55,493 nucleotides of DNA from an uncultured Rickettsiales bacterium (GTDB taxonomy: Bacteria; Myxococcota_A; UBA796; UBA9615): assembly GCA_964492355.1 (NCBI GenBank), contig CAZBKF010000002.1, positions 1-55,493 of the forward strand, read 5' to 3'. Position 1 is the first letter of the stretch, and each line of letters begins with the position of its first letter. The notes below the pieces were generated by a model. That model ran no database searches. It had not been told where the DNA came from and saw only the letters and a list, made by a program, of their open reading frames with translations. This document shows positions 8,562 through 54,500 of the stretch, piece after piece. Both the position numbers and the translations under genes were made by a program.

Positions 8562-8576
8562 GGCTTTTCGCACCCG

Positions 8577-10526
8577 ATGAGTGACGACTCTCGCTACGAG
8601 GACTTCGGCGGCTACCAGCTGACCCACCTGCTTGGAAAAGGCGGGATGGCGAAGGTGTATCGCGCCGTGCGCTCGGGGCCGATGGGGTTCGTCAAGGAAG
8701 TCGCGATCAAGCGGATCCACGACTCCCTCGTCGACAACGAGGCGATGATCCACGGCCTGATCAACGAAGCGAGGATCGGAGGCCAGCTCAAGCACCCCAA
8801 CATCGTCGAGGTCTACGAGTTCAACAAGGTCGGCCAGGCCTACTACCTGGCCTTGGAGTTCGTGGACGGCTGGACCCTGGACCGGCTCGTGAAGCTGGCC
8901 AAGGACCAGAACATGCCCCTGCCGCCGTCGGTGATCCTCGAGATCGCTCGGAACATCTGCGACGGGCTGGACTACGCGCACAAGCTGGAGTCCCTGGACG
9001 GCAAGGCGGTCCGGCTGGTGCACCGGGATCTGAAGCCCGCCAACATCATCGTGAGCCGGTTCGGCGTCGCCAAGATCATGGACTTCGGCATCGCCAAGGC
9101 CGCGACGAACCTGTTCCACACGGCGGTCGCGGACGTCACCAAGGGCACGCCGCACTACATGTCCCCGGAGCAGGTGGCGGGGGATCGGGATCTCTCGGGC
9201 TCGTCGGACCTGTTCGCCCTGGGCGCGGTGCTGTACGAGCTGATCACCTCGAAGGTGCTGTTCCAGGGCGAGACGCTGCCCACGGTGCTGTTCAACGTGG
9301 TGCGGGCAGAGGTCGGGCCCCAGATCGCCGAGGCCGACCGGAAGCTGCCCGGCATCGCCCCGCTGCTCACCCGGCTCCTGTCGAAGAGCCCCGCCGAGCG
9401 ACCCACGGACGCGGCCGAGGTCTCCGCCGCGCTGAAGCGGCTGGCCAACGAGAAGTACATCGATGGGCCCCGGGTGCGGGACTACCTGTACGCCGTCCGG
9501 GACCGCATGCTGGTGGGCTCGGGCAAGACGGTGACGGGTCCGTCGAAGGCCGGGCCCGAGGCGTCGGTGGACGCTGGCGGCGAGCCGGAGTTCGCGACGA
9601 TCGTGGGCCCCATGGAGGACGCCCCGGAGGTGGACCTGGGGCTCGCCGAAGCCCGGGCTGCGGCCGACGCGGCCATCGGCGCGGGGGTGGTCTTCGGGGG
9701 CGGCGGCGAGGCGGTGGACCCGAGCGGGGCGACCCGAGCCGACAACGAGCTCGTGGACGAGGAGGAGACCGCTCAGCTGCACCAGCTCCCCGAGGAGCAG
9801 GGTCCGAGCACCCCCGTCCTGACGAATCCGAACCAGAAGGAGACCCGCCGCGTCCCCGGCCCGACGCGTCGGATGAAGAAGAAGCCGGCGAAGAAGACAT
9901 GGTCAACGCCGCTCCTCATCCTGGCGGCCGCGTTGGCCCTCGTGCTCGTCGGCACGGTGGGCTGGATCATCAAGATGTCGCTGGACGAGGAGACGCCGGA
10001 CGCGATCGTCGAGGTGTCGGATCCCACCGCCGCTCCGGCAGATCCCGGGGGCCTGGACTTCCCGGAGCCCGCGACCGCCGCGGTGACGGTCGAGCCGAAG
10101 ACCCCGCGAGCCGAGCCGTCCACGCCGAAGGCCGAGCCGGTCACGGCCGCGCCGGAGCCCGTCACGGCGTCCGAGCCCACGCCCATCCCAGACCTGCCCA
10201 CGCCCGAGCCCACGCCGGAGCCCACGCCGGAGCCCACGCCCGAGCCCGCGACGCCGGAGCGGGTGGCGGTGGTCGAGCCCAAGGGCGAGGGCACCCTGTC
10301 CATCAAGACCAGCAACCCCTACGCCCGGGTGGTGATCGACGGCACGGACACGGGCAAGATGACTCCGGTGATGCGCCTCAAGCTCCGGGCCGGGCCACAC
10401 GACGTCGTGCTCGTCGCCGTTGACATGGCCAACAAGCGCAGCAAACCCCACAAGTTCGTGCTCGAAGACGGGCAGAACCTGAAGCTCGGCCACTACGACT
10501 TCCATTCGGACAACTGGAGCGACTGA
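8577..10526 (+). CDS. Ser/Thr protein kinase with TM segment, Pro-rich linker and C-terminal PEGA-like domain
   Basis: Hanks kinase motifs are present: GKGGMAKVY, AIK, HRDLKPANI, DFGIAK, GTPHYMSPE. The TM segment is LLILAAALALVLVGTVGWII and the linker contains (TPEP)4. The C-terminus GTLSIKTSNPYARVVIDGTDTGKMTP resembles a PEGA domain. Confidence 0.9.
   Translation: MSDDSRYEDFGGYQLTHLLGKGGMAKVYRAVRSGPMGFVKEVAIKRIHDSLVDNEAMIHGLINEARIGGQLKHPNIVEVYEFNKVGQAYYLALEFVDGWTLDRLVKLAKDQNMPLPPSVILEIARNICDGLDYAHKLESLDGKAVRLVHRDLKPANIIVSRFGVAKIMDFGIAKAATNLFHTAVADVTKGTPHYMSPEQVAGDRDLSGSSDLFALGAVLYELITSKVLFQGETLPTVLFNVVRAEVGPQIAEADRKLPGIAPLLTRLLSKSPAERPTDAAEVSAALKRLANEKYIDGPRVRDYLYAVRDRMLVGSGKTVTGPSKAGPEASVDAGGEPEFATIVGPMEDAPEVDLGLAEARAAADAAIGAGVVFGGGGEAVDPSGATRADNELVDEEETAQLHQLPEEQGPSTPVLTNPNQKETRRVPGPTRRMKKKPAKKTWSTPLLILAAALALVLVGTVGWIIKMSLDEETPDAIVEVSDPTAAPADPGGLDFPEPATAAVTVEPKTPRAEPSTPKAEPVTAAPEPVTASEPTPIPDLPTPEPTPEPTPEPTPEPATPERVAVVEPKGEGTLSIKTSNPYARVVIDGTDTGKMTPVMRLKLRAGPHDVVLVAVDMANKRSKPHKFVLEDGQNLKLGHYDFHSDNWSD
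10200..10247 (+). repeat. 4 x 12-nt coding tandem repeat (TPEP)4
   Basis: acgcccgagccc / acgccggagccc / acgccggagccc / acgcccgagccc. Confidence 0.9.
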
Positions 10527-13199: not shown

Positions 13200-13353
13200 T
13201 GGACGGCGCCCCTCCTGGCGGGATCGACCGAAGACGCGTGATAGGATCGCCTAGTCGCGGCCGAGTCTGCTTGTCTCCTCTGAGTCTACGGTAGAGCGAG
13301 GGTCCCCGCGAGGGGCGCCGGCACGGGTTCAGACCCTCGGCGTAGGAGGGTCC

Positions 13354-14202
13354 ATGTCCGAGTCCTCTCGGTCGGACGCCCAGGGGCGCTCGGCCAGCTA
13401 CCGCATCGAGGATCTCGACGCCGAAGCAGAGCTTCGTCGACTCGAGGCCCAGGTCCGCTTGGTGGTGCCCACCGAGCATCGTCTCTTGAAGGAGATCGGC
13501 GTTCGGCCCGAGTCGACGTTCGTCGACGTCGGCTGCGGCCCCGGCTTCTTCGCTGAGCGCGCGGCCCGAGAGCTGCTCGACAGCGGCGCCCGGGGCGGCC
13601 GGATGATCGGCGTGGATGTGGACGAGAAGCTGATCTGGCTCGCACGCAAGCGAGCTGAGGATCTGCGCCTGCCTCTGGAGTACGTGGTCGGGGCCGGCGC
13701 GGAGATCCCGCTGGACGACGGCGTGGCGGACGTGACCTACGCGCGCTTCCTGTTTCAGCACCTCGAGCATCCGATGGACGTGCTGACGCAGATGGTCCGA
13801 ATCACCCGTCCCGGCGGCCTCGTGGCGATCGTGGACACGGACGACGGCAGCCTGGTCATGCACCCCGAACCCGTCGGGTTCCGGCGCCTGGTGGACGCCA
13901 GCGGGCGCGCCCAGAACGCCCGGGGCGGAGACCGGCGAGTGGGCCGCAAGCTCAAGCGGTATCTGGCTGCGGCGGGCCTCGAAGACCCAGGCACCAAGGT
14001 GCACGCGTTCACGAGTGAAGACGTGGGCGTCGATCCCTTCATCGAGATCACGGTTGGCTTCAAGGCCGGGGTCCTGCGCCCGCCGTTCATCACCGCCGCG
14101 GAGATCCAGGAGACTGTCGACGACCTGGACCGTGTGCGGAACACCCCAGGGTTCTTTGGCCACGCGCTCGGCTACCTCGCGTGGGGGCGGAAGCCCACGT
14201 GA
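13354..14202 (+). CDS. Class I SAM-dependent methyltransferase
   Basis: Motif I VDVGCGPGFF, then IGVDVD and a LVIVDTD-like motif (LVAIVDTD). GGAGGG RBS 6 nt upstream of the ATG. Confidence 0.8.
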   Translation: MSESSRSDAQGRSASYRIEDLDAEAELRRLEAQVRLVVPTEHRLLKEIGVRPESTFVDVGCGPGFFAERAARELLDSGARGGRMIGVDVDEKLIWLARKRAEDLRLPLEYVVGAGAEIPLDDGVADVTYARFLFQHLEHPMDVLTQMVRITRPGGLVAIVDTDDGSLVMHPEPVGFRRLVDASGRAQNARGGDRRVGRKLKRYLAAAGLEDPGTKVHAFTSEDVGVDPFIEITVGFKAGVLRPPFITAAEIQETVDDLDRVRNTPGFFGHALGYLAWGRKPT

Positions 14203-27402: not shown

Positions 27403-27436
27403 CGGCCTCGGTCTTCGGACCGGGGCCGTTTCGCTT
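27403..27436 (+). terminator. Intrinsic terminator candidate: 11-bp stem, TTCG tetraloop, short T-rich tail
   Basis: cggcctcggtc (27403-13) / ttcg / gaccggggccg (27418-28). This gives 10 Watson-Crick pairs plus 1 G-U pair, followed by tttcgctt. It lies 32 nt after the stop at 27371. Confidence 0.6.
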
Positions 27437-27466: not shown

Positions 27467-27637
27467 CCATTTCGGCGGGGGAGCAGACTGTTCAGGCCAC
27501 TTCGGCGGGGGAGCAGTCTGTTCGTGGGGTGAAATGGCGCGGGGCCGGGCTTGGCCGGGCCGTTCCAGGCCACTTCGTCAGGGGAACAGTCTGTTCGTGG
27601 GGTGAAATGGCGCCGGGCCGGGCTTGGCCGGGCGTCG
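27467..27637. repeat. Intergenic tandem repeat: one 30-nt partial copy plus two ~70-nt copies, each carrying a 13-nt near-palindrome
   Basis: Copy A spans 27467-27496, copy B 27497-27569 and copy C 27570-~27637. The shared core is ccaYttcgKcRggggaRcagWctgttc, and B and C continue gtggggtgaaatggcgcSgggccgggcttggccgggc. The palindromes are GAGCAGACTGTTC (27481-93), GAGCAGTCTGTTC (27511-23) and GAACAGTCTGTTC (27584-96). Confidence 0.9.
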
Positions 27638-27653: not shown

Positions 27654-27899
27654 ATGCCGATCACCGAGATCGTGAGGGTGCTCGCCGAGAGCGACACCTA
27701 CGACGGGCGTGTCCTCGAGCTGCTCTACGACGTGGACGGGTCGGCGAAGTCCGACGAGGACACTGTGGGGTGGCCCCGCTTCTGGATCCGCGAGCGCCGG
27801 GCCGGGCGCCTCGAGGCGACCCACGGGCCGTTCGATGACGAGGACGAGGCGGTCGACTTCGCCGTGGGCCTGGGATCCACCCGCTGGCGAGACGGGTAG
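27654..27899 (+). CDS. Small acidic hypothetical protein (81 aa)
   Basis: The frame from the ATG at 27654 (MPITEIVRVLAESDTYDGRVLELLYDVDG...) has G/C at about 76 of 81 third positions, which is a strong coding signal. There is no recognisable family and no obvious SD. The track start at 27624 (TTG) lies inside the repeat. Confidence 0.55.
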   Translation: MPITEIVRVLAESDTYDGRVLELLYDVDGSAKSDEDTVGWPRFWIRERRAGRLEATHGPFDDEDEAVDFAVGLGSTRWRDG

Positions 27900-27985: not shown

Positions 27986-29752
27986 CTATCCCCCCGCCGC
28001 GGCCATGCGCGCGATGCGGTCCAGGGTGGGCGAGCGGTCGGGCCACCGCGAGCGCATGTGATCGAGCACCTCCCGGGCTCGCCCGAGTTCGGCCCGGTGC
28101 AGGAACACATCGAACGCCAGGGCGACGTGGGGCAGGGAGTCGGGCTCCAGCAGCAGCAGCCGCTCCGCCATCTGCTCCCGGTCCGAGGCGAGGGCGCGCC
28201 CTTCACCGAGGTGGAGCTCCGTCCACAGGCGCCAGTACAGGAGCTCCGGCGCGTCCGGCTCCAACACCTCGAGCTCCGCGAGCAGCAGTTCGGCCTGGTC
28301 CCGCTGGCCGAGGCGCGCGAGCTCCGAGGCCAGCACCAGGGCCGAGGCCGGATCGCTCGACGCCTCAGCGGGTGCGCGCTCCCGGGCTCGGGTCAGGGAC
28401 GTCGTGTCGAACAGGTCCAGCGACTCGATGATCGCCTGCCGGACGGGGCCGTAGGTGCGCCAGTGCTCCAGCGGATGCACGAACTGCAGCGTGGTGACGT
28501 GCACGCCCCGCACGCAGCCCAGGTTCAGGGCGCGCAGGGGCTGTCCCTCGACCACCAGATCCATCTCCAGCGTGAAGCAGCGCCCCAGATCCGCCGGCAG
28601 CCGCGGGGCGAGGGCCATCCGTCGGGGGAGCACGATCGCTCCGGATCGCTCCAGCTCGGCGACCCAGACCGCTTCGACCTCGGGCCGGGATGCGGGCTCG
28701 TGCTCCTCCATCCAGGCCGTGGTGGTCACGCGCGCGGCCCCGGTGAGGGAGCGCCAGCTGGGGGCTCCGTCGGCCTCGGCCACGTCCCAGGTGCGGGGGG
28801 GATGGATCGCGTACCCGGCCTGGGGGAACGGGGCCGGATCCGCTGCGGGCAGCACCGTCCCGATGAGCCCCAGCTCCGAGGCGGCGGGCAGGCCGACCGT
28901 CGTGATGAAGACGAGGGCGACCGACGCCCCCGCGCGCGTCAGCCTCCGGGCCGTCATGTCGATCGTCTCGACGTGGGACGAGGGGAGCGTCAGCCCCAGC
29001 GTGGCGCCCACCGCCAGTCCGCCGAGGTGGCAGAAGTTGTCGACGAAGTCGGACCAGATCGCCCCGAACAGGAGGAAGTAGACGATGAAGGGGAAGATCG
29101 ACCACCCGAACCGCTTGCGCGCCGTCTCGGGCATCCAGGTCCCGTAGCGCCAGCCCAGGGCGAGGGCCGCTCCGAACAGGCCGAAGGTGATGCCCGAGGC
29201 GCCCACTGTGGGCAGGGGCGTGGCGACGCTGGAGACGATCATGGAGCCGATGGCCGAGGCGACGATCACCAGCAAGGTGCCCGTGCGGCCCAGCAGCGAC
29301 TCGACGTTCCACCCCACGTACAGGACGTAGAGCAGGTTCGGGATGATGTGGGACCAGCCGGCGTGAAGGAGCGAGGCCGTCAACAGGCGCCACCACTGTC
29401 CCAGCTCGACCTGGTGGGGGAGCGACTTCGCCCCCTGCTCGACGAGTACCGCTCCAGACAGGCTGTCTCCCGTCGCGAGTTGCCAGGCGTAGACCACCAG
29501 CAGCAGCGAGACGGTGGCGAGCGTGACCCAGGCGGGCTGCCGGAAGGTGAAGCGGGCCATGAACCGGCCCTGCTGGTCATCGATCAGATCCTGGAAGATC
29601 TCCATCGAGTCAGCCGACACGAACTCGGTTCCGGTCGCCGGTGGGAACCGGACCTGCGCGTGGCGGGGCACCACCCCCCGACGCACCGCGTCCTCGAAGT
29701 CCTCGTACGACAGCGTCTCGATCGACCCGTCCGGGTGGCGGATCTCGACCAA
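27986..29752 (-). CDS. Rhomboid-family intramembrane serine protease with GYF-like N-terminal domain and long C-terminal TPR-like extension
   Basis: Rhomboid core: WWRLLTASLLHAGWSHIIPN, catalytic Ser in GASGITFGLFGA and His in FCHLGGL. About 300 aa of extra C-terminal sequence carries helical repeats. Confidence 0.85.
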   Translation of the reverse strand: MVEIRHPDGSIETLSYEDFEDAVRRGVVPRHAQVRFPPATGTEFVSADSMEIFQDLIDDQQGRFMARFTFRQPAWVTLATVSLLLVVYAWQLATGDSLSGAVLVEQGAKSLPHQVELGQWWRLLTASLLHAGWSHIIPNLLYVLYVGWNVESLLGRTGTLLVIVASAIGSMIVSSVATPLPTVGASGITFGLFGAALALGWRYGTWMPETARKRFGWSIFPFIVYFLLFGAIWSDFVDNFCHLGGLAVGATLGLTLPSSHVETIDMTARRLTRAGASVALVFITTVGLPAASELGLIGTVLPAADPAPFPQAGYAIHPPRTWDVAEADGAPSWRSLTGAARVTTTAWMEEHEPASRPEVEAVWVAELERSGAIVLPRRMALAPRLPADLGRCFTLEMDLVVEGQPLRALNLGCVRGVHVTTLQFVHPLEHWRTYGPVRQAIIESLDLFDTTSLTRARERAPAEASSDPASALVLASELARLGQRDQAELLLAELEVLEPDAPELLYWRLWTELHLGEGRALASDREQMAERLLLLEPDSLPHVALAFDVFLHRAELGRAREVLDHMRSRWPDRSPTLDRIARMAAAGG

Positions 29753-29759
29753 CTGGGCC

Positions 29760-31511
29760 TCAGCCGTCCAGCCTGCGGAGGAGCTCGGCGGGTCCCGAGC
29801 CGGGCAGCGGGGCCAGACCGGGCTTGCGGTTGTCCCCCCCGAGCGCGCCGACGAGGGCCGTAGCGAGGCGTTCGTGAGCCGCAGCCCGTCCCGGCGCCCG
29901 ATGATCCAGCGCCGCCCGGAGCTTGTCGTGCACCACCCTGCGGGTCTCGCTCTCGGGACGGCTCGGAGCGCCCCGGGCCACCGCCACCTCGGCCTCGCGC
30001 ACCCGCCCGCCGTGCAGCAACACCCGGATCCGAGCGGGAATGGGGAACGTCAAGGCGGCCAGATCGTGCTCCGACAGGTCCGGGCCCCGACGCCGCGCCG
30101 GGGTCTCGAACGTCGGTCCGAGCAGCCTCTGGAGGCCGCGCGCGGCGAGGTCCGAGAGCTTGCCGATGCCCCGGTTGAGCAGCTCCGTGGGCTCTTCGCC
30201 GTCGAGCTCCTGGAACCGCTCACCACCCAGCGCCATGGGCAGCTCGGCGACGGACAGGCCCGCCTCCAGCCCGCCGCCGGCCCGGCACGCCGCGGCCAGC
30301 AGCGGCACCGCGCCGACCCCCGCGAGGAGCTTGTCGATGCCCACCCCGACCTTCAGCGCGTTCCAGGTCTTCAGGGTGAGGCGCCAGTCGTGGTGCAGCC
30401 AGATCCGCGTCGCCAGCTCGGCGATGTCGTGCCCATGCTGCTCCAGGGAGCGCTCGCTCAGGTCGCTGGACCGGATCGAACCGGCGATCAGACGCAGCGC
30501 GAGGCTGCGGGCCACCGAGAAGTTGATCGACACCGGGGTGAGGGGCGCATCGGCCCCCAGGAGCCGCTCCATGGCCATCGTCAGGAGGCCCGCGTCCACG
30601 TCGATCCGCATGACGTCGTCGGCGCGGAGGGCGCGCCCCTCTTCGGCCTCGAAGTCCTCGGCGATCAGATCGAGGGCCTCCAGCGACGTGGCGAGGTACG
30701 CGCAGCCCGGGACCGCCTTGATCGCCAGCGACCAGGTCAGCCACGCGGTCTTCGTCGGATCGTGGGCCGGAAGACCCGTCAGCCAACCCCGCAGGGGACG
30801 TCCCTGGGCGTGCACCGCGAGGAAGTCCGACTCACCGTCGAGCAGCCCCAGGGGCCCGTTCATCCCCGCCTCGGCCAGCTTGGCCATGCGCCAGCCATCG
30901 AGGAGGGGACGAGCCGCCGTCAGCACCTTGCCGCCGCTGCCGAAGAGCCCCCAGTCCACGTGGGGAGCCTGGGCCAGGGCCAGGGCGATCCCGTGGGCGA
31001 GCCGCTCTGCGTCCAGGCCCCGGAGCATGCCGTAGGCGAGCGCTCCCCCGACCGAGTGGATGAAGGACCAGGCCTGTCCGTTCTGACGACCCGCGATGCA
31101 GAGCCCGCCGAGGCGCGCCATGACCTCGTTGGCCGCGAGCTGGGCCCGCAGGGCGTCGTCCCAGGTCAGCCCCGCCTCCGCAGCGCCGAGCCAGGACGCC
31201 CAGACGGCGCTGTGCCCGGTGTGTCCGCAGAGCATCCAGTCGTCGTAGTCGTGGGCCATCGACAAGGTCGAGCCCGCCAGGAGGGCACCCTCCAGGGAGA
31301 GGTCGGCCAGCCCGGGGGCCACCACCAGGTCGCCGGAGCCGAGGCCTCGGGCCATCGCCAGCACCGGGCCGACGTCGTCGCTGTCCAGGCCTGCCGCAGC
31401 GGCGCCGAAGACGGACGCGGCCTGCCAGCGGAGGCGCTCCAGCACCCCGGGAGGGGCGTGGTCCAGCGAGAGGGCGCAGGCCCACTCGGCGAGGTCGAGG
31501 ATGGTGCTCAC
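29760..31511 (-). CDS. MmgE/PrpD-family protein (2-methylcitrate dehydratase / cis-aconitate decarboxylase superfamily), C-terminally extended
   Basis: GTG at 31511 overlaps the upstream stop (GTGA). LAEWACALSLDHAPPGVLERLRWQAASVFGAAAAG and MAHDYDDWMLCGHTGHSAV match the family's N-terminal and HD(F/Y)DD motifs. The 49 upstream codons of the track ORF overlap the Pnkp-like gene and are rejected. Confidence 0.75.
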   Translation of the reverse strand: MSTILDLAEWACALSLDHAPPGVLERLRWQAASVFGAAAAGLDSDDVGPVLAMARGLGSGDLVVAPGLADLSLEGALLAGSTLSMAHDYDDWMLCGHTGHSAVWASWLGAAEAGLTWDDALRAQLAANEVMARLGGLCIAGRQNGQAWSFIHSVGGALAYGMLRGLDAERLAHGIALALAQAPHVDWGLFGSGGKVLTAARPLLDGWRMAKLAEAGMNGPLGLLDGESDFLAVHAQGRPLRGWLTGLPAHDPTKTAWLTWSLAIKAVPGCAYLATSLEALDLIAEDFEAEEGRALRADDVMRIDVDAGLLTMAMERLLGADAPLTPVSINFSVARSLALRLIAGSIRSSDLSERSLEQHGHDIAELATRIWLHHDWRLTLKTWNALKVGVGIDKLLAGVGAVPLLAAACRAGGGLEAGLSVAELPMALGGERFQELDGEEPTELLNRGIGKLSDLAARGLQRLLGPTFETPARRRGPDLSEHDLAALTFPIPARIRVLLHGGRVREAEVAVARGAPSRPESETRRVVHDKLRAALDHRAPGRAAAHERLATALVGALGGDNRKPGLAPLPGSGPAELLRRLDG

Positions 31512-32770
31512 GACGTCCAGGTCTCCCAGCGCGCGACGCCCTCGACCCAACTCCGGGACGCCTGCACGCTCTCGAAGGTCCGCTCGGGCCAGCGCATCGC
31601 GCACAGCGCTCCGCCAAAGACGGCCCCCAGGTCGATGTCCGCGGTGTTGTGGCGCCACTCGGCGCGCCGCACCGGCACGTGTCCATGCACGACCGCCGGC
31701 TCCCCAGAATAGTCAGCCGCCCAGTCGAGCCGCTCGGGATATCCGTCGATCTCCCGGCCCGTCGTCTTCCCGTACAGGCAGAAGGCCCGCACCTTCGGGC
31801 CGACCCGGCCGTGGTCTCGCTCCTCGAGCCCGGCGTGGGTCACGATGAGCGCGCCGCCGTCCAACCACAGGTAGGGAGGAGCGCTCTTCATGAGGCGATC
31901 GAAGCGGGCCCGCAGCTCCCGATCCTCCGCATCCGTCAGGGCGTTCCACTCGGCCACCGTGCTGCCGAGGCCGCCGGACACCGTGACGCCCCGCCCCTGA
32001 AGCCAGCGCCACAGCTTGTCGTCGTGGTTGCCGGGCACGAACAGCGCGCGGCTGTCCTCCAGCCAGGGGAGCACGAGGCGCAGCACGCCGACCGAGGAGG
32101 GGCCCCGGTCCACCAGGTCCCCCAGGAAGACGAGGCGCCGTCCCTCGGGATGCAGTCCGTCCACGTAGCCGAGCTGGTCGAGCAGCGTCTCGAGCTCGGC
32201 CAGGCAGCCGTGCACGTCTCCGATGATGTCGAAGGGCCCGCTCACGTCCAGGCGGAGCGGCGCCAGGGGCTCCCGCTCGACGATGACCTCGTCCAGGTTG
32301 GAGGCGTCGAGGTGGTGCACCCCGTCGTAGCGCTCGTCATCCAGGTCTGAGGTGAGCCGATCCGCGAGCTCGCGATGGGTCCGCAGGACCGAGTCCGGGA
32401 CCTGGCGGGCGCGGGCTTTGTTGCGCTCGCGCAGCGTCTCCAGCTTCGCGTCGAACACCACCAGGTGGACGGGGAGGCGAGCGGATCGAGCGATGCGCCG
32501 GAACTCGGCCCGTCCTTCCTTCTCGAGGTTCGTCGCGTCCACCACCGTGATCCGGCCGTGGGCGAGGCGCGCTTCGCAGAGCTGGTGAACCAGCGCGAAC
32601 GTCTCCTCGTTGATGTCCTGGTTGTCGGGGTCGTCGCAGAGCAACCCCCGCACCGCGTCCGAGGACACCACCTCCGTCGGTGAGAACCAGCGCTGGGCGA
32701 AGCTGGACTTGCCGCTCGCCGCGGGTCCGCACAGGACGACGAGGGACGGCTCTGGGAGTCGGAGCGGCAC
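31508..32770 (-). CDS. Pnkp-type polynucleotide 5'-kinase / 2',3'-phosphatase (kinase + metallophosphatase only, no ligase domain)
   Basis: GTG start. The P-loop (LVVLCGPAASGKSS) and SSDAVRGLLCDDPDNQ are T4-Pnk-like kinase features. The calcineurin-type motifs GDVHGC, GDLVDRGP, GNHD, THAG and VHGHVP follow. From memory, the order and spacing are colinear with the first ~420 aa of bacterial Pnkp. Confidence 0.75.
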   Translation of the reverse strand: MPLRLPEPSLVVLCGPAASGKSSFAQRWFSPTEVVSSDAVRGLLCDDPDNQDINEETFALVHQLCEARLAHGRITVVDATNLEKEGRAEFRRIARSARLPVHLVVFDAKLETLRERNKARARQVPDSVLRTHRELADRLTSDLDDERYDGVHHLDASNLDEVIVEREPLAPLRLDVSGPFDIIGDVHGCLAELETLLDQLGYVDGLHPEGRRLVFLGDLVDRGPSSVGVLRLVLPWLEDSRALFVPGNHDDKLWRWLQGRGVTVSGGLGSTVAEWNALTDAEDRELRARFDRLMKSAPPYLWLDGGALIVTHAGLEERDHGRVGPKVRAFCLYGKTTGREIDGYPERLDWAADYSGEPAVVHGHVPVRRAEWRHNTADIDLGAVFGGALCAMRWPERTFESVQASRSWVEGVARWETWTS

Positions 32771-32839
32771 CGGGGGACGTGTCTAGCAGCGATCCGGGGA
32801 GAGCACGACACCGATGGCAGCCAGCGGCCGCGCCACGCC

Positions 32840-32845
32840 TACAAT
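32840..32845 (+). promoter_or_regulatory. Possible -10 box (TACAAT) 6 nt upstream of the GTG of the CHAT-STAND gene
   Basis: A near-consensus hexamer in the 81-nt divergent intergenic region. No SD is present before either divergent gene, and no good -35 was found. Confidence 0.2.
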
Positions 32846-32851
32846 CGACGG

Positions 32852-35800
32852 GTGCAGAGCCTGGAACTCCACGTTCGTGCAGACGGGGACGTGCTCGCCT
32901 TTCACGTCGTGGATCGTGAGCGGGTGTCCACGGGGACCCCGCAGGGCACGTCCTCGCTGGGGCGGAGCAACGCCCGCGCCCGGGGAGCGCGCCTCGAGCA
33001 GCAGATCGCCGATGCATGCGCTCGGGGAAAGCTGAACGCGGCCGACCGAGAGCACATTCGGGCGCGAGCCCAGCTCCTCCACGATCTGCTGGTTCCCGCC
33101 GCTCTGCGTCCGACGCTCCGGGCATCGGTGGGGTGCCCGCTGTGGCTGCGTTTGCGGGGGTGGTCGAGCGAGCTGCCCTGGGAGTGGCTGCACGATGGCG
33201 TCGGGTACTGGTCCGACCGCTTCGCGGTAGGGCGCGACAGAGGCCGGGGTCGGCCCCGTCCGCTCCCGTCGCCTCCTCGACGGCTGCTGGTCCTGGGCGA
33301 CGAGGCCACCCTCGGCAGGGCCCGGCTCACCACCCTGCGGGGCCGGCTCCAGGAGCGGGGCATCACCACCCGGGTCCAACGAGGTCCGCTCCTGCGAGGG
33401 GACCTCCGGGTCGCGCTCCAGGCCGCCGACATCGTGCACGTCGGGGCAGCCGCTACCGGCCAGGGGCTCGCCTGCGCGGACGGCGCCTTCGGTCTTGGAG
33501 ATCTGCCCGAGGGAGGACCCTGGCCACAGCTCCTGGTGCTGGCTGGCTCGGGCACGCGGGGATTCGGTGAGGCCGCTCACCGGGCGGGGGTGCCCACCGT
33601 CATCGCGACGACGACGCCCCTGGCGAGGGGCGCGGGTGCGTCCGTGGTGGCTGCCCTCTACGCCGGGCTGCTGGATGGAGCCTGCGTGGGGGAGGCGCTG
33701 ACCGCTGCGCGTCGGGACGATCCGGAGGACATCGGGGCCGTCCCGTGGCTCCTCCTCGGTGACCCGTCGGCCATCCTCGGGCGGCCGCGGCCCCCCGCTC
33801 CCCAGGACGGAGCCGCCTGGGTGGGGGTGTGGGTCGACGCCAAGGTGAGCGATCCGGACAAGGCAGCCTCGATCCGGGGCCCCATCCAGGAGCTCGTCCG
33901 GGCGGAGGGACAGCGGCTGGGCCTCGAGCCCCAGGTGTCGGCGGCGGGCCAGGCGGTCCTGTTCGGACTCCCTCCGAGTCGGTTCGGAGATCGCACCGGG
34001 GAGGCTGGGTTGGGCCTCGCCGAGCGGCTGCGGGACACCCTCTCCGAGGATCGCGTGGCAGGTCTCGGGGGGCGGTTCGGCGCGACGCTCGGAGTGGGGC
34101 TCGCGGTGGGGCCGGGAGCCCCGAGCCGGGCGGTGGAGCTCGCGCGTCGAGCGGCGCCGGACGTGTTGATCGTCGACGGGGATGGCAAGGAGTCGAGCCG
34201 CCGGGAGCGGCGGGTCTTCATCGAGCTGAGGCGCCCTGCGTCGGACGGAACCCTCGCCTGGGAAGCGCGGCCGGGGTCGGTGGCTCCGCCCAGGCCCCTG
34301 CTGGGACGGCGGGACGAGCTGCACGCCCTGCAGCGCGGGTTCGACGAAGTGAAGCGCCGTCACGAGACCCGGCTCGTGCTGATCACCGGGTCCGCGGGGA
34401 GCGGGAAGTCGGCCCTCGTGCAGGGATTCGGTCGCCGCCTGGCCGACCGGGGCGTAGAGGTTCAGACCCTCGAGCTCACCGAGCTCGGAGGCCCCACCGA
34501 GCGCTACCCCTCCGAGTCGGCGACCGCGGCCGTGCTGGTCTACGAGGACGCACACCGGCTGGGGGACCGACAGTTCGGAGAGCTCCTGCACCGTCTCGCC
34601 CGGCCTCGGCCTCCGGCGTTGGTCATCGTCACGCTCCGGGCGGACTCGCCACCGCGCCGACTGCGCCTCGCCCAGCTCCAGGACGCGGCGACCGACAGCA
34701 TCCCCCTGCCGGCTCTCTCTGCCGCGGACGCCTCGGCGTTGGCGAGACAGCTCCTGGGGCGCGCGAACCTGTCCCGGGACGAGGAGCGGCTCCTGGGGCT
34801 GGCGGACGGCAATCCGCTGCTGATCCGGTTGCTCGCGGGCCGACTGCGGGGGGCCGGGGTCCAGGGCGACGAGCCGCCTGCGCTCGTCCGCGGGATGATC
34901 ACCGACCGCCTCGCGGGGGCCGGGGCCGAGGTGGCTCGGGTGCTCGAGGGCGTGGCCGTGCTCGGGCAGCCTTGCACCACGGACGCGCTGGAGGCGTTGC
35001 CGGGGGTGACGCCGAGCGCGGTGGCCCAGGCCGCAGCGGAGGGGTGGCTGACTCTGCGGAGTGAGATGCTCGGGGGTCGCCGGGTCGCTCGGTGCCGCCT
35101 GCGCGACCGGATGATGGCCCGCTACCTGGACGCGCTGGTCGACACGGACCGCGGCCCCGAGCTCCACCAGGCCGCGTTTCAGTGGCACAGCAAAGTGGGA
35201 AGCGGCGCCTCGAAGCGTGCTCGCCACGCCCTGCGCTCCGCGGCGCCCCTGCAAGCCGTCGCGCCTCTCTGGGAGGCGATCCTCGCGGGTGGCGGGGAGG
35301 AGCGGTACACCGAGCACATCGACGCTCTGGAGCGCCTGCTGGCGACGACCCCCGAGACGGAGATGCCCGTGGATGCCCCGACGTCCGCCCAGGTCCGGGC
35401 CGTGCGCCATGGGCTGCCAGGGCTGTCCGTCGGTGGCTACCGGGTCCGGGGCCTCATTGCGGTCGACCGGCTGGCCACGCGGTTCCTCGTGGACAGGCCC
35501 GAGGGCGAGCTCGAGCTCCGGCTGGTGCACCCCGAGCTGGTCCCGAACCCGCCGTCCCGTCGCCGCTTCGAGGAGCACCTGCAGCGGCTGCGGGCCCTGA
35601 ACCTGCCGTCGCTGGTGCCCGTCGGCGACTCGCTGGAGATCGACGGGCAGCTCGTCCTGCCTGCTCGGTGGTTCGCCGGTGAGAGCACCCGAACACACCT
35701 GGCGCGGCACGGCGCCCTGGCCCCGGCGCAAGCCGCGGCGGTCGCTGGTGAGGTCCTCGGACTGCTGGCGGCGCTGGCTCAGCGCAGTCCAGAGACGGCG

Positions 35801-35902
35801 TCGGCACTGGACCTGCGCCCCGAGGGAATCTGGTTGGGGGACGACGGGCGGGTCCGGGTGGAGCACCTGACTGCGCTGCAGGGGGGCCGCTGTGGGCGCT
35901 GA
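32852..35902 (+). CDS. CHAT-like / cyclase-like / AAA (STAND, AAA_16-type) ATPase / helical / protein-kinase-like N-lobe giant protein, interrupted by a frameshift
   Basis: CHAT hallmarks are ELPWEWLHD, ADIVHVGAA, QLLVLAGSGT, VPTVIATT and WLLLGDP. Walker A is ITGSAGSGKS and Walker B is VLVYEDAH. The C-terminal kinase-like part (YRVRGLIAV...LDLRPEGIWLGDDGRVRVEHL) stops at TGA 35900-02, in the middle of the kinase fold. Confidence 0.8.
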   Translation: MQSLELHVRADGDVLAFHVVDRERVSTGTPQGTSSLGRSNARARGARLEQQIADACARGKLNAADREHIRARAQLLHDLLVPAALRPTLRASVGCPLWLRLRGWSSELPWEWLHDGVGYWSDRFAVGRDRGRGRPRPLPSPPRRLLVLGDEATLGRARLTTLRGRLQERGITTRVQRGPLLRGDLRVALQAADIVHVGAAATGQGLACADGAFGLGDLPEGGPWPQLLVLAGSGTRGFGEAAHRAGVPTVIATTTPLARGAGASVVAALYAGLLDGACVGEALTAARRDDPEDIGAVPWLLLGDPSAILGRPRPPAPQDGAAWVGVWVDAKVSDPDKAASIRGPIQELVRAEGQRLGLEPQVSAAGQAVLFGLPPSRFGDRTGEAGLGLAERLRDTLSEDRVAGLGGRFGATLGVGLAVGPGAPSRAVELARRAAPDVLIVDGDGKESSRRERRVFIELRRPASDGTLAWEARPGSVAPPRPLLGRRDELHALQRGFDEVKRRHETRLVLITGSAGSGKSALVQGFGRRLADRGVEVQTLELTELGGPTERYPSESATAAVLVYEDAHRLGDRQFGELLHRLARPRPPALVIVTLRADSPPRRLRLAQLQDAATDSIPLPALSAADASALARQLLGRANLSRDEERLLGLADGNPLLIRLLAGRLRGAGVQGDEPPALVRGMITDRLAGAGAEVARVLEGVAVLGQPCTTDALEALPGVTPSAVAQAAAEGWLTLRSEMLGGRRVARCRLRDRMMARYLDALVDTDRGPELHQAAFQWHSKVGSGASKRARHALRSAAPLQAVAPLWEAILAGGGEERYTEHIDALERLLATTPETEMPVDAPTSAQVRAVRHGLPGLSVGGYRVRGLIAVDRLATRFLVDRPEGELELRLVHPELVPNPPSRRRFEEHLQRLRALNLPSLVPVGDSLEIDGQLVLPARWFAGESTRTHLARHGALAPAQAAAVAGEVLGLLAALAQRSPETASALDLRPEGIWLGDDGRVRVEHLTALQGGRCGR
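35879..35887 (+). other. G6 homopolymer / formal X_XXY_YYZ heptamer (caG GGG GGC) at the frame switch inside the kinase-like domain
   Basis: Frame 2 reads ..LTALQGGRCGR*. Frame 1 from the same G-run reads GGPLWALTEMGALRGRVGSIAPELLEG.., which continues the kinase fold. One extra G or a -1 slip would fuse the two. Confidence 0.7.
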
Positions 35903-35907
35903 CCGAG

Positions 35908-36231
35908 ATGGGGGCGCTCCGAGGTCGGGTCGGGAGCATCGCGCCCGAGCTCCTGGAAGGCCACCCGCATCCCGCGAACGGGGTCTGGTCGGTGGGTGCG
36001 CTGCTCTGGGAGCTCCTGACGGGCGCGCCGCTGTTCGCCGGTCGTTCGATCAGGGAGGCCTCAGCGGCCGTTCGCCAGGCGGACCTGACCCCTGCCTTCG
36101 ACCAGGTCGGACAGTCCCACCCGGCGTTCGCTCCGCTGCTGCGGCGCACGCTGGTCCGGGATCCCGATGCCCGGCCGCAGGCTACCGAGCTGGCCGCGGA
36201 CCTGGCCCGGATCAGCGCGGAGCTCGGATGA
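35908..36231 (+). CDS. Protein-kinase C-lobe fragment: out-of-frame continuation of the CHAT-STAND gene (frame is open upstream to at least 35779)
   Basis: SIAPELLEG is APE-like. GVWSVGALLWELLTGAPLF is the DxWSxG helix F, and RDPDARP is the subdomain XI motif. Confidence 0.75.
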   Translation: MGALRGRVGSIAPELLEGHPHPANGVWSVGALLWELLTGAPLFAGRSIREASAAVRQADLTPAFDQVGQSHPAFAPLLRRTLVRDPDARPQATELAADLARISAELG

Positions 36232-37468
36232 CCTTCGTCTGAGCTTCGCCAGCGCCGAGGGCGCCGATGCCCGCCAGTCGCGGCAGCTCGGCCGCCATCG
36301 CACCGCGGATCTCCAGGCTGTGGTGCGCGGCGAGGCCATCGGCCAGATCGAGCTCGGCGTGGCCCAGGACCCTCACCGCGATCTCCCACCCCGCGGCGGT
36401 TCCGGATATCCCGTGCCCCAGCACCTGGGGGGAGAACCGTACGGTCCCGTCGTCGGCGACGAAGGTGGCCCCTCCGGCGTGTTCCGGAGGCAGCTCGGTG
36501 GGCAGGAGCAGCACCGCTTCCGCCGCCGGCTGCAGCATGGCGGGCTCCAGGAACGCCGCCTGGTGCGCCCGGAAGGGGCAGCCAGGGACGGTCGAGGAGC
36601 GGATCTCGCCCACGATCCACGCCGCCGAGAGCCGCCCCAGGGACTCGGCCGTCGGAGCCTCCGCCGCCAGCGGCAGCCCCACCTCGAGTGCCCCCAGCAC
36701 GCCGGGGTGTCCATACACCAGGGTGTGGCGCACGTCGGTGGGCCAGGGCGCGTCGGGGTCTGCCTGCAGGGCGAGCACTCCGCGCCGACGCAGCGCGTCG
36801 ATCGTGTCCGGGAGCAGCGGGTGGCTGCCCCTCTGGATGACGGCGACCGGATCTCCCACATCCAGCTGGTCGAGCGAGGCGGTGCTGCCCCACTCCCCCA
36901 GGGTCTGCTGGGCGCGGTGCCGCAGCCGCCGCTCGGCGTCGGGCACGAGCAGGTCCACCTGGGGAGGCAGTCCGTCCCGATCCCGGCTCCGTCGCTCCAG
37001 CGCTCCAGCTGTGTGCGCCAGGACGTACAGGGTCTCCAGGTCGACGTCCGCGGGGTTCACGAGCAGGGACCAGGCTGACTCGGAGCGGCTGTCCCGAAGA
37101 CGCGCCTCCAGGAGGTGGGTCGCGTCGGTCCAGCTCAGGGGCTCGAAGCCCGCTGTCCCCGCCCGCCAGACCACCGGGGCGGAGAGTCGGCCGAGGCGAT
37201 GGAGCTGGGGTCGGCTCATCCCCCGAAGCGTCGAGACGTCCGCGAGCCGGGCGGGATCCAGGGCGTCGGCGGTGACCCGGGGCAGCCGCCGCAGCCTGCG
37301 ATCGCACAGGTGGCTGCCCTGCAGCACGTCGTCGCGCAGTCCCCCCGAGCCCAGGCTGCAGTCGTTGCACACCCCGTGCTTCAGCACGTCCCACGCGAAC
37401 CGCAGCCGGGCCCGGTTCGTCCAGAGCGCTCCGAAGGCCGGGGCGACGAGTCGGTCAGGTCGTGGCAC
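36212..37468 (-). CDS. Shortened YdeP/FdhF-like molybdopterin oxidoreductase alpha-subunit homologue
   Basis: The N-terminus (LKHGVCNDCSLGSGGLRDDVLQGSHLCDRRLRRLPRVTADALDP...GRLSAPVVWRAGTAGFEPLSWTDA) and a C-terminal block (AVLLLPTELPPEHAGGATFVADDGTVRFSPQV) resemble the ends of ~760-aa Fdh-alpha-like enzymes. This protein is only 418 aa. It lies adjacent and divergent to fdhD. Confidence 0.55.
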   Translation of the reverse strand: MPRPDRLVAPAFGALWTNRARLRFAWDVLKHGVCNDCSLGSGGLRDDVLQGSHLCDRRLRRLPRVTADALDPARLADVSTLRGMSRPQLHRLGRLSAPVVWRAGTAGFEPLSWTDATHLLEARLRDSRSESAWSLLVNPADVDLETLYVLAHTAGALERRSRDRDGLPPQVDLLVPDAERRLRHRAQQTLGEWGSTASLDQLDVGDPVAVIQRGSHPLLPDTIDALRRRGVLALQADPDAPWPTDVRHTLVYGHPGVLGALEVGLPLAAEAPTAESLGRLSAAWIVGEIRSSTVPGCPFRAHQAAFLEPAMLQPAAEAVLLLPTELPPEHAGGATFVADDGTVRFSPQVLGHGISGTAAGWEIAVRVLGHAELDLADGLAAHHSLEIRGAMAAELPRLAGIGALGAGEAQTKVIRAPR

Positions 37469-51345: not shown

Positions 51346-51522
51346 AGGCTGGGCGCAGTGGGGCCTTCGTTGGATGCTCGTACTCCAAGGGCACCGATCC
51401 GCCTGGGGTGATTCAAGCCTCGAAGTGGATCCCCTGGGGTGGAGTGGGGTATGAGTGCTTCGATTCCCGCCTCGACCGGCGCCTTTCGGCTGGGGGAGTC
51501 GACGCTGTTAAATGAGGCGGGT

Positions 51523-51527
51523 GGAGG
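51523..51527 (+). promoter_or_regulatory. Shine-Dalgarno (GGAGG) 6 nt upstream of the ATG at 51534
   Basis: ggtGGAGGatactgATG. Confidence 0.6.
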
Positions 51528-51533
51528 ATACTG

Positions 51534-54500
51534 ATGCCGTCCTGTCTGCGTTCTACCCTCGCCACCATGGCGGGCCTCTTCATTCTCGCGCCTGCCGCTG
51601 CCCTCGCTCAGGGTGGCCCCGATGCCGGCGGACACATCTGGAACACCACGACGTACGACTTCGTGGTGCTCGACCCCGCGAGCAGCGGTTCCGGCACGGC
51701 GCTGGCGCTGACGACCTCGGACCAGGAGTTCGACGTCACGCTGCCCTGGCAGTTCGCGTTCTACGGGAACAGCTACTCGACCATCACCGTCGGTGAGAAC
51801 GGCGCCATCGCCATGGGCGGCGGGGCCAACCTCTTCAACGGAAACGGCTCGCTGCCCGACACGTCGACCGACTCGGCAGACATCGCCGTGTTCTGGGACA
51901 GCCTGGACGCGTGGGACAGCGGTGCGAGCGCTGCCGTCGGCGGCATCTTCACCTACGACGACACGGCGAACTCGCGCTTCATCGTCTCCTGGGAGAACGT
52001 CGGCTACAGCAGCGACAACACCCCGGGCGGTTCCTTCCAGGTGCACCTGATGGCTGACGGCACCATGTCGTTCCACTACGCGGACACCGACTTCGGTGGC
52101 TCCGGCGACTTCGGCGCGAGCGCCACCGTCGGCATCCAGGACTTCACCAACGGCACCGCCGATCAGGGCAACGCCCTGGAGATCTCGTACAACACGGCGA
52201 GCATCACCGACGGCGTCACCGCCTACGGCATCAGCTTCTGCGCCGACGGCGACGTGGACGGCTTCTACGACATCGCCTGCGGCGGCGACGACTGCGACGA
52301 CGCGGCGGCGGCGATCAACCCGGCCGCGGCCGAGACCTGCAACGACGGCATCGACCAGGACTGCAGCGGCGCCGACTCCCTGGACGACGTCGCCGCGGAC
52401 GGCGGCATCAACACCGACTGCGGCGGCGACGCCAGACACGAACTGGACGCGACGATCAACCCGCCCACCGCCGAGGTCTGCGACGACAGCATCGACAACG
52501 ACTGCGACGCGACCACGCCCGACATCTTCGACGCGGACGCGGACACCTACGACTGCGATGACGACTGTGACGACTCCGACGCCGCCGTGAACGCCGGCGC
52601 CACCGAGGTCTGCTCCGACGGCATCGACAACGACTGCGACGGCATCCCCCTGCTGTCCGACACGGACCTGGACGGCGACATCGCCATCGCGTGCGGCGGC
52701 ACCGACTGCGACGACTTCGACGCGTCCCTGAACACCCTGACGGACGCCGACGGCGACGGCTTCGACTCCTGCTCTGACTGCGACGACACGAGCGCCGTCT
52801 CGCTGCCCGGCGGCACCGAGGTCTGTGACGGCCTCGACAACGACTGCGACGGCATCGGCGCGGGCGTCGCCGAGTTCGGCGGCACGAACTCGACGAGCAT
52901 GTTCGGCCCCGGCTCGAACCGCGGCCGCGGTGGCATCTGGGCCATCACCTCGACCACCATCCTGAACAGCGTCGGCGCGCGCTTGGACGTGCCCGTCGGC
53001 TCCGACGTGGTCTTCGCGGTCTACGCGGGTCCCGCCACGGGCGTCGCGACCGGCCCCTCCGACTTCAGCCTGATGGCCACCGCCACCTACACCTCGGCGG
53101 CCGATGGCCTGATGGACCGCATGGTCGACATCGGCGTCACCCTGGACGCGGGCTTCGACTACGGCTTCATGTACTACTGGACCGACAGCGTCGGCTACGG
53201 CTACACGAGTGGGACCAGCTTCCCGATCGTGGCCCCGTTCGGCGGCCAGTACACCTCGGTCTTCGACTCGAGCAACAGCTCGCCCCCGGCCGTGGGCTCG
53301 GGCAGCACGAGCAGCACCCACTACTCGCTGATCCTCGGCGTGGGCGACGAGCTGGCCGACGCGGACGCGGATGGCGTCACGGCCTGTCTCGGTGACTGCA
53401 TCGACAGCGACGCCACGGTGAACCCGAGCGCCGTCGAGGTGTGCGACACCCTGGACAACAACTGCGACGGCAACACCGACGATGTCGACCTCGACATCGA
53501 CGGCGAGGTCGACGAGGCGTGCGGCGGCACCGACTGCAACGACGCGGACGCCGCGATCAACACCGCGGCCACCGAGGTCTGCGACGGCGTCGACGGCGAC
53601 TGCGACGGCCTCGACGACACGATGGACACGGACCTGGGCCCGCCGATCGTGGCGAACGCCCCCGAGACCCAGAGCAGCACCCCGGGCGCCGGGATCAGCG
53701 ACAGCAACCCGACCACGACGGACACCGTGACCTTCGCCACGGTGGGCGCGGTCACGGACATCAACGTGTCGGTGGACATCACCCACACCTGGGATGGGGA
53801 CATCGACATCGTCCTGACGGCGCCCTCCGGCAACTCGGTGACGCTGGCCGACCGGATCGGTGGCAGCGCGAACGACTACACGGGCACGACCTTCGACGAT
53901 GAGGCGACCGGCCCGATCACCGCGAGCTCCCCGCCGTACACGGGCACCTTCCAGCCCCAGAACGCCCTCAGCGCTCTCGACGGCGAGTCGGTCGCGGGTA
54001 CCTGGTCGCTGTCCATCACGGACTACGCGGGTGGCGACAACGGCACCCTGAACTCCTGGTCCGTGACCATCGAGTCCGGCTCGGGCGGCGCGGACATCGA
54101 CTTCGACGGCTTCATCGACAACTCGCTCTGCGCGACCATCGACGCCGACTGCGACGACACCGACGCCACGATCTACCCCGGCGCCCTGGAGATCTGCGGC
54201 GATTCGATCGACCAGGACTGTGACGGTGTGGACACCACGGGCGACGTGGACACCGACACGTACGCCTCGGTCGAGTGCGGTGGCACCGACTGCGACGACA
54301 ACAACATCCTCGTCTTCGACGGCTCGGACAACGACGGCGACTCGGCCCTGGGCTGCCAGGACGACTGCGACGACACCAACGCCGCGGTCGGCCCGTTCGC
54401 GACCGAGGTCTGCAGCGACGGCATCGACAACGACTGCGACGGCATCGCCTTCGAAGGCGCCGACGTCGACCTGGACGGCGAGACCGACTGCACCGACTGC

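Follow-up and report, generated by a model that had tools for sequence, protein, structure and literature searches.

Work on bacterial Pnkp has dealt almost exclusively with a kinase-phosphatase-ligase partnered by Hen1. A Pnkp-like gene with neither the ligase part nor a nearby Hen1 lies in a 55,493-nucleotide (nt) stretch, hereafter the window, of contig CAZBKF010000002.1 (assembly GCA_964492355.1) from an uncultured Rickettsiales bacterium, assigned by GTDB to Myxococcota_A. It is the first of three contiguous minus-strand genes (the trio), and is followed by genes for a divergent MmgE/PrpD-fold protein and a rhomboid intramembrane serine protease. A model reading of the sequence alone (the original prediction) had taken the trio for an undescribed three-gene module that might form a stress or conflict-response system with a divergent CHAT-STAND gene. 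Here we favour, with a rough probability of 0.55, a different answer: the trio would be a lineage-specific operon of separable functions, in which the Pnkp-like protein heals ends autonomously, rather than a single machine or a defence system. The clade to which this protein belongs appears to be monophyletic and keeps only the end-healing half of Pnkp, with both active sites under purifying selection. The genes and their parts are as follows (aa, amino acids).

31508-32770, minus strand: gene 1, ligase-less Pnkp-like kinase-phosphatase, 420 aa
32267-32770, minus strand: kinase domain of gene 1, about aa 1-168
31532-32251, minus strand: binuclear metallophosphoesterase domain of gene 1, about aa 174-413
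29760-31511, minus strand: gene 2, divergent MmgE/PrpD-fold protein, 583 aa
27986-29752, minus strand: gene 3, rhomboid intramembrane serine protease, 588 aa, with a predicted cytoplasmic N-terminal region (aa 1-72), a core of 6+1 transmembrane helices (aa 73-297) and an extracytoplasmic C-terminal domain (aa 298-588)
31508-31511, minus strand: GTGA start/stop overlap of the Pnkp-like and PrpD-like genes, read off the sequence
29753-29759, minus strand: 7 nt separating the PrpD-like stop from the rhomboid start, read off the sequence

Gene 1 retains the kinase and phosphatase of bacterial Pnkp and ends before the ligase. Its P-loop GPAASGKS (residues 15-22) and SSDAVRG motif (residues 36-42) are followed by the phosphatase motifs GDVHGC, GDLVDRGP, GNHD, THAG and VHGHVP, all of which the original prediction had read in the 420-aa product as a kinase fused to a calcineurin-type phosphatase, and the Pfam models AAA_33 (7e-29) and Metallophos (3e-16) match accordingly. 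The NCBIfam model TIGR04075 (bacter_Pnkp) aligns with an E-value of 2.4e-131 and 439.6 bits over profile positions 2-422 of 851. Thus, gene 1 ends where the ligase half of the profile begins, exactly as had been proposed, and because this half is absent the score remains below the curated equivalog cut-off of 750 bits. The best matches in the Protein Data Bank (PDB) are the phosphatase (4j6o, 9e-58) and kinase (4jst, 6e-30) of C. thermocellum Pnkp (CthPnkp), and over residues 1-413 the protein is ~45% identical to canonical full-length Pnkps.

A comparison with the essential residues listed in structural papers on CthPnkp revealed that all of the kinase essentials (K21, S22, D38 and R41) are present in gene 1, together with the acceptor contacts Ser37, T80, V128 and H132 (the last two corresponding to Val129 and His133 of CthPnkp) and the lid arginines, R120 and R122 being among the residues found. 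The kinase differs from the CthPnkp list at Ser17, which is replaced by Ala, and at Gln83, which is replaced by Glu. All nine phosphatase essentials are likewise present: D185, H187, D218, R222, N248, H249, H312, H364 and D380 match Asp187, His189, Asp233, Arg237, Asn263, His264, His323, His376 and Asp392 of CthPnkp, respectively. The phosphatase is a Metallophos domain and not a HAD-type (DxDxT) 3′-phosphatase; that of T4 Pnkp is of the HAD type rather than a metallophosphoesterase. Given the Pnkp-model scores, the PDB matches and the catalytic residues, gene 1 is best assigned as a Pnkp-type end-healing enzyme.

The original prediction had likewise preferred this assignment to an ApaH/PrpE-type phosphatase with a generic kinase, and the scores agree. 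The PrpE equivalog model reaches 232 bits (cut-off 340) and aligns with the phosphatase part alone, and the ApaH models reach 38-69 bits, against cut-offs of 176-223. Moreover, unlike stand-alone PrpE and ApaH phosphatases, gene 1 has a Pnk-type kinase fused at its N terminus. The 440 bits that TIGR04075 gathers over both domains, as compared with 232 bits for PrpE, speak against a PrpE/ApaH phosphatase joined to a generic kinase.

These features extend to the relatives of gene 1. In a neighbour-joining tree, the representative proteins P0001-P0027 form one clade of uniformly short proteins, and we regard this myxobacterial ligase-less Pnkp-like clade as monophyletic on the strength of that tree. 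The essential kinase and phosphatase residues are kept in all of P0001-P0027 where the positions are covered (P0002 lacks the N terminus), with limited variation: P0009 has Thr in place of Ser22, four members carry Gln or Asp at the position of His132, and Arg116 differs in a few.

Do these proteins have their usual partners nearby? For tblastn, canonical loci supplied one Hen1 query and two Pnkp ligase-domain queries; as a control set we used 80 loci fetched from a genome-contig scan with a Pnkp-like alignment, almost all of them encoding canonical full-length Pnkp; no trio-clade locus was among the matches listed in that scan. Among these 80 loci, 76 gave a Hen1 match, which lay immediately upstream of Pnkp wherever its position was listed, and 79 gave a ligase-domain match. 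In the 55-kb window, by contrast, neither Hen1 nor a Pnkp ligase domain was matched by tblastn, and a Pfam scan of 34 open reading frames (ORFs), comprising all long ones with coding-type G+C content at third codon positions (GC3), found no Hen1 or ligase domain, in line with what had been noted from the sequence alone. The sole methyltransferase in the window is a generic one at 13255-14202. Similarly, neither partner was found in loci L001-L010, L094, L095 and L014, a search that covered up to 10 kb on each side in the relatives and took in a Peptococcaceae locus with a short Pnkp-like gene.

Ligase-less Pnkp-like proteins also occur in other phyla (L014, L009 and L128), in unrelated gene contexts. 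The genes upstream of the short Pnkp-like genes of L128 (319 aa) and L009 (516 aa) had no PDB match; the L009 gene had no Pfam match on scanning and the L128 gene no recorded Pfam hit, and thus no hidden ligase was identified in either.

Two of these contexts and one fused relative have features of their own. At L009 8454-17131 (GCA_032942435.1), a different short Pnkp-like gene overlaps the upstream 516-aa hypothetical gene and is followed by genes for two hypothetical proteins, of 915 and 831 aa, in which no convincing Pfam domain was recognized (the 915-aa protein has a sub-threshold HSP70 hit only), with a MazEF pair nearby; this locus may be another uncharacterized Pnkp-like context. At L128 5730-8299, the short Pnkp-like gene, which represents another such clade, comes after genes for a cold-shock-domain protein and the 319-aa hypothetical protein, with a 4-nt gap. 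In P0095, a 665-aa protein found on 19 contigs, a Pnkp-like kinase-phosphatase is fused to NmrA/NAD-dependent epimerase-like domains.

Gene 2 is matched by the Pfam model MmgE_PrpD_N (1.3e-16, 61 bits against a cut-off of 32), whereas the C-terminal MmgE/PrpD model remains below its cut-off (28.2 against 32.1). Its single sequence found no relative in the PDB, and a family profile was therefore needed; this profile matched B. subtilis IRG1 (5e-23) and iminodisuccinate (IDS) epimerase (3e-21), and also cis-aconitate decarboxylase (CAD). An AlphaFold2 (AF2) model built from 71 sequences has a predicted local distance difference test (pLDDT) score of 89.6 and a predicted template modelling score (pTM) of 0.90, with a low-confidence insertion at about aa 400-480. 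In a Foldseek search with this model, the best 23 matches (E ≤ 0.001) are all PrpD, IRG1, CAD or IDS epimerase, with TM-scores of up to 0.83 (target-normalized, to cis-aconitate decarboxylase). Gene 2 is thus predicted to adopt the complete two-domain MmgE/PrpD fold.

Its conserved signature differs from that of the characterized enzymes. Homologues of gene 2 share a near-invariant signature (DD, GHTGHS, NE..R, NGQ, H, K, K..PGC.Y, T..M, S, HD and T), which the window protein keeps in its entirety. In a profile alignment, made without side-chain superposition, the catalytic His of IRG1 (in the HPS motif; His102 of B. subtilis IRG1) aligns with Gly99 of gene 2, which lies inside GHTGHS and is flanked by His97 and His100; the Lys of GxxxK and the Lys of K..P.C are conserved, and the later His is absent. 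These comparisons place gene 2 in an uncharacterized MmgE/PrpD subfamily.

Gene 3 contains a Rhomboid domain (1.9e-27, 96.7 bits) with the motifs GASG, CHLGG, QWWR and SHIIPN, which supply the catalytic Ser and His, the WR loop and HxxxN. By equivalog scores it is neither GlpG (49.9 against a cut-off of 250) nor a rhombosortase (37.3 against 84). The hydropathy profile shows a seventh hydrophobic helix, and both motifs and hydropathy are conserved in seven loci; this helix would therefore place the ~290-residue C-terminal domain, with its tetratricopeptide repeat (TPR)-like helices, outside the cytoplasm. The TPR_14 model itself matches weakly, its 18.6 bits falling short of the 23.5 cut-off, and an AF2 model from two sequences was too poor to use (pLDDT 40). 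As a word-index search with the C-terminal domain returned two proteins, an exhaustive search of 1.84 billion representative proteins was used in its place, and this placed the domain in no more than about 6-10 representative clusters; in the six strongest, which are 511-603 aa long, it likewise forms the C-terminal end. Gene 3 is therefore predicted to be a catalytically intact rhomboid with a clade-restricted C-terminal domain, consistent with the apparently active protease with extra terminal domains that had been described.

The three genes are packed tightly. The TGA stop of gene 1 (31510-31508) overlaps the GTG start of gene 2 (31511-31509), an overlap expected to couple translation of the Pnkp-like and PrpD-like genes. 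The stop of gene 2 lies at 29762-29760 and gene 3 starts with TTG at 29752, with a GAGG sequence overlapping the PrpD-like stop codon ahead of this TTG. Both the GTGA overlap and the 7-nt spacing had been reported correctly, and the co-directional trio is almost certainly co-transcribed.

The arrangement is conserved in relatives. The Pnkp-like gene is followed by the PrpD-like gene in 13 distinct loci (the window, L001, L004, L096, L006, L010, L097, L098, L094, L008, L100, L103 and L099), with identities of 56-100% for the Pnkp-like and 35-100% for the PrpD-like proteins, and the rhomboid gene comes next in every one of these loci that extends far enough. The 4-nt Pnkp-like/PrpD-like overlap is kept in the gene calls of five relatives (L001, L004, L006, L010 and L094). 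Between the window and L001, dN/dS is 0.22 for gene 1 and 0.14 for each of genes 2 and 3, and all three genes are under purifying selection. The trio loci span three or four subclades, and the trio occurs solely in a single clade of myxobacteria-like bacteria that are probably marine.

The members of the trio are nevertheless separable. Outside the clade, PrpD-like homologues (31-40% identity) stand alone, and neither partner is present at eight such loci whose flanks each reach at least ~2.9 kb. Within it, the PrpD-like and rhomboid genes are present and the Pnkp-like gene is exactly missing at L095 9291-10001 (GCA_024229515.1) and in L104, whereas at L103 446-1567 the Pnkp-like protein lacks the kinase P-loop and acceptor residues, keeps intact phosphatase motifs and is predicted to be kinase-dead. 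Conversely, the PrpD signature is partly or mostly lost in P0127, P0128, P0130, P0131, P0139, P0158 and L094, and the Pnkp-like gene is intact in the loci read for such PrpD-eroded lineages (L010 and L094). The components thus appear to erode independently, a pattern that disfavours an obligate module. Furthermore, the conserved synteny is wider than the trio and includes molybdenum-cofactor genes, FdhD, an ASH-domain protein, a chorismate-binding enzyme, ThiE and a sigma-54 activator.

The immediate surroundings of the trio comprise the following features.

32852-35902, plus strand: CHAT-STAND(-kinase) gene, with CHAT and STAND/AAA_16 domains
32771-32851, no strand: short divergent intergenic region, presumed promoter region of the trio, from ORF coordinates
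27654-27899, plus strand: small conserved ORF (about 81 aa) that converges on the rhomboid gene, 65% identical to its L001 homologue (tblastn)

The divergent head-to-head neighbour does carry the CHAT and STAND (AAA_16) domains that had been ascribed to it; its proposed link to the trio was not supported. The CHAT-STAND gene adjoins the trio only in the window, L001 and L004, lies two genes off in L008, is represented in L095 and L104 by a C-terminal fragment only and is absent from L006, L010, L094, L097 and L098, in which the homologue of 36212-37468 stands directly upstream of the Pnkp-like gene. Its reading frame shifts near 35881 in the window, giving frames at 32825-35884 and 35881-36108 compared with a 1,148-aa homologue in L001; this may reflect a pseudogene or an assembly error in a metagenome-assembled genome. 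If the gene starts at 32825, the region between it and the trio is only 54 nt long. No match to a sigma-70 consensus promoter was found at the trio. Overall, to judge from its distribution, the CHAT-STAND gene looks like an unrelated variable insertion.

The 418-aa hypothetical protein encoded at 36212-37468 (minus strand; hyp418) has no Pfam hit and resembles part of an L008/L095 gene called 'Molybdopterin' oxidoreductase; its gene pairs divergently with FdhD. We set it aside as a fourth operon member, since it is molybdopterin-oxidoreductase-like, paired with FdhD and located elsewhere in L008 and L095. In L008, the trio has an ECF-sigma-like gene and a 207-aa gene immediately upstream of it (8575-9973); these two genes are subclade-confined, with no match in the window or the loci of other subclades, and the 207-aa gene recurs in L095 and L103. 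On the other side, a gene of 77-84 aa occupies the position of the 27654-27899 ORF in L001, L006, L008, L010 and L094, and this ORF is inherited together with the trio.

The remainder of the window, which has a base composition of ~70% G+C and in which high GC3 was used to tell real genes from other ORFs, contains no Rfam families or tRNAs. A terminator-like hairpin lies at 27403-27428, in the intergenic region past the ASH-domain gene, and is followed at 27493-27633 by two tandem repeat copies that align over 68 nt at a spacing of 73 nt, are 94% identical and contain inverted repeats. At 51516-55493 (plus strand), a very large secreted-type protein with 11 MopE-like metal-binding repeats and two proprotein-convertase P domains runs past the window end.

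Under the favoured reading, in which the trio is an operon of separable functions, the P-loop kinase of gene 1 would phosphorylate 5′-OH polynucleotide ends, with Asp38 as the general base, Arg41 and Thr80 holding the first phosphodiester, and Lys21 and Ser22 binding the NTP together with Mg. The Mn-dependent metallophosphoesterase would open and remove 2′,3′-cyclic or 3′-phosphate ends. The resulting 5′-P/3′-OH ends would probably pass to 5′-monophosphate-dependent and 3′-exonucleolytic decay, or to an unlinked ligase; with no ligase domain and no Hen1, such general pathways would take the place of methylation-protected repair. Gene 2 would probably act on a small carboxylate, and gene 3, a probably YqgP-like rhomboid, would cleave a membrane substrate. 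The three proteins would thus be co-expressed and co-inherited, but catalytically independent of one another.

Several points weigh against this account. The conserved translational coupling of gene 1 with gene 2 could point to a stoichiometric complex, the trio is still contiguous where the flanks have changed (L008 and L094), and the rhomboid C-terminal domain appears to exist only in the trio clade. Even in lineages with an eroded signature, the PrpD-like ORF has kept its full length under purifying selection, which is unlike the expectation for a purely independent enzyme. In addition, the activities, transcripts and interactions assigned to the trio are predictions from sequence comparison, which would fit either RNA or DNA as the substrate of gene 1; the Michaelis complex of CthPnk was solved with a DNA oligonucleotide.

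Some of these observations would suit an integrated module, in which a Pnkp-like/PrpD-fold complex is tied to the membrane by the rhomboid and serves a stress or conflict response linking end processing to a metabolite. The overlap of stop and start codons is kept, the trio is contiguous in 13 loci even with differing flanks, the PrpD-like ORF is kept after signature loss in a manner that suggests a structural role, and the rhomboid C-terminal domain is clade-specific. Moreover, citrate, a tricarboxylate like the substrates of the PrpD family, sits in the CthPnkp phosphatase active site as an inhibitor, a coincidence that is suggestive only. However, the Pnkp-like gene is deleted in L095 and apparently kinase-dead in L103, where the PrpD-like and rhomboid genes persist, and outside the clade each family is found alone. 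None of the three trio proteins matched a defence model in PADLOC-DB 2.0, where the sole hit, a weak one to PD-T4-6 kinase models, falls in the C-terminal part of the CHAT-STAND neighbour; the neighbourhood is of a housekeeping type with conserved wider synteny, and the CHAT gene is variable and frameshifted. We therefore consider an integrated module rather unlikely, and the stress or conflict-response role is not borne out. As for the original prediction of an undescribed three-gene module, its undescribed status is supported, in that no paper in the literature searched joins Pnkp or Hen1 with PrpD, whereas L095, L103, the erosion of the PrpD signature and the stand-alone homologues argue against obligate linkage.

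A bolder version, which we regard as quite doubtful, is that the PrpD-fold protein was recruited as a partner in place of the ligase and Hen1, gating end-healing by a tricarboxylate-type metabolite or acting on the healed end, with the rhomboid coupling the pair to an envelope signal; this would constitute a new kind of RNA-end processing module.

We hold it improbable that gene 1 takes part in canonical RNA repair in trans, a reading in which the genes for Hen1 and a ligase lie at other sites of the genome and those next to gene 1 are there by coincidence. Its end-healing residues are identical to those of repair Pnkp, and our view covers only 55 kb of the genome of the window. Against this, Hen1 lies beside full-length Pnkp and the ligase is fused to it in nearly all of the canonical loci, Hen1 is known from published work to activate the fused ligase domain in CthPnkp-type systems, and the whole clade is ligase-less with no Hen1 within 10 kb at any locus. 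Equally improbable is a small-molecule enzyme combining an ApaH/PrpE-type dinucleoside polyphosphate hydrolase with a kinase that acts on a nucleotide or metabolite, possibly one akin to the substrate of the PrpD-like protein: the PrpE equivalog model does match (6e-69), as do the ApaH models, and the relative P0095 is fused to NmrA/epimerase-like domains, but the PrpE match is sub-threshold and limited to the phosphatase, the Pnkp model scores far higher over both domains, and the polynucleotide-acceptor residues Ser37, Arg41, Thr80, Val129 and His133 (CthPnkp numbering) are conserved.

The ligase-less Pnkp-like proteins of this clade, with the similar forms in other phyla, point to a role for end-healing without dedicated sealing, for example to ready nuclease-cut RNA for decay. 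The analysis further delimits an uncharacterized PrpD-fold subfamily marked by an invariant signature, as well as a rhomboid whose predicted extracytoplasmic domain is restricted to the clade. Should the first two proteins prove to form a complex, this would be the first link of a PrpD-fold protein to nucleic-acid end processing.

A comparison with known systems shows how far each component departs from its characterized relatives. Bacillus subtilis YqgP (GluP) has a cytosolic N-terminal domain, a 6+1 transmembrane core and an extracytoplasmic TPR C-terminal domain (PMC7231995). Judging from hydropathy and the weak TPR_14 match, gene 3 would share the cytosolic N-terminal region, the seventh helix (TM7) and the extracytoplasmic C-terminal TPR-type domain. 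Its N-terminal region, however, is much shorter (~70 aa compared with ~170 aa) and an extra ~150 residues extend from TM7 to the TPR-like helices; the sequence relationship is detectable in the rhomboid core only, the C-terminal domain being clade-restricted. Gene 2 shares its fold with IRG1/cis-aconitate decarboxylase, iminodisuccinate epimerase and 2-methylcitrate dehydratase, and its DxDD, K...PxC and C-terminal strand motifs can be aligned with those of characterized MmgE/PrpD proteins, but it is only 11-18% identical to them, has a signature of its own and contains an ~80-residue insertion.

For gene 1, the split Capnocytophaga Pnkp1-Rnl-Hen1 system resembles the trio in having a kinase-phosphatase polypeptide without its own ligase. 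Pnkp1, however, acts together with Rnl and Hen1 from neighbouring genes, whereas neither was found beside gene 1, and it belongs to a different family, being a T4-Pnkp homologue; the split systems mentioned in the original prediction therefore offer no precedent within the gene 1 family. The closest relative remains canonical bacterial Pnkp, with which gene 1 shares the N-terminal P-loop 5′-OH polynucleotide kinase and the central binuclear metallophosphoesterase, essential residues included. It differs in lacking the C-terminal adenylyltransferase/ligase domain and an adjacent Hen1, and in lying instead beside the PrpD-fold and rhomboid genes in an operon-like cluster.

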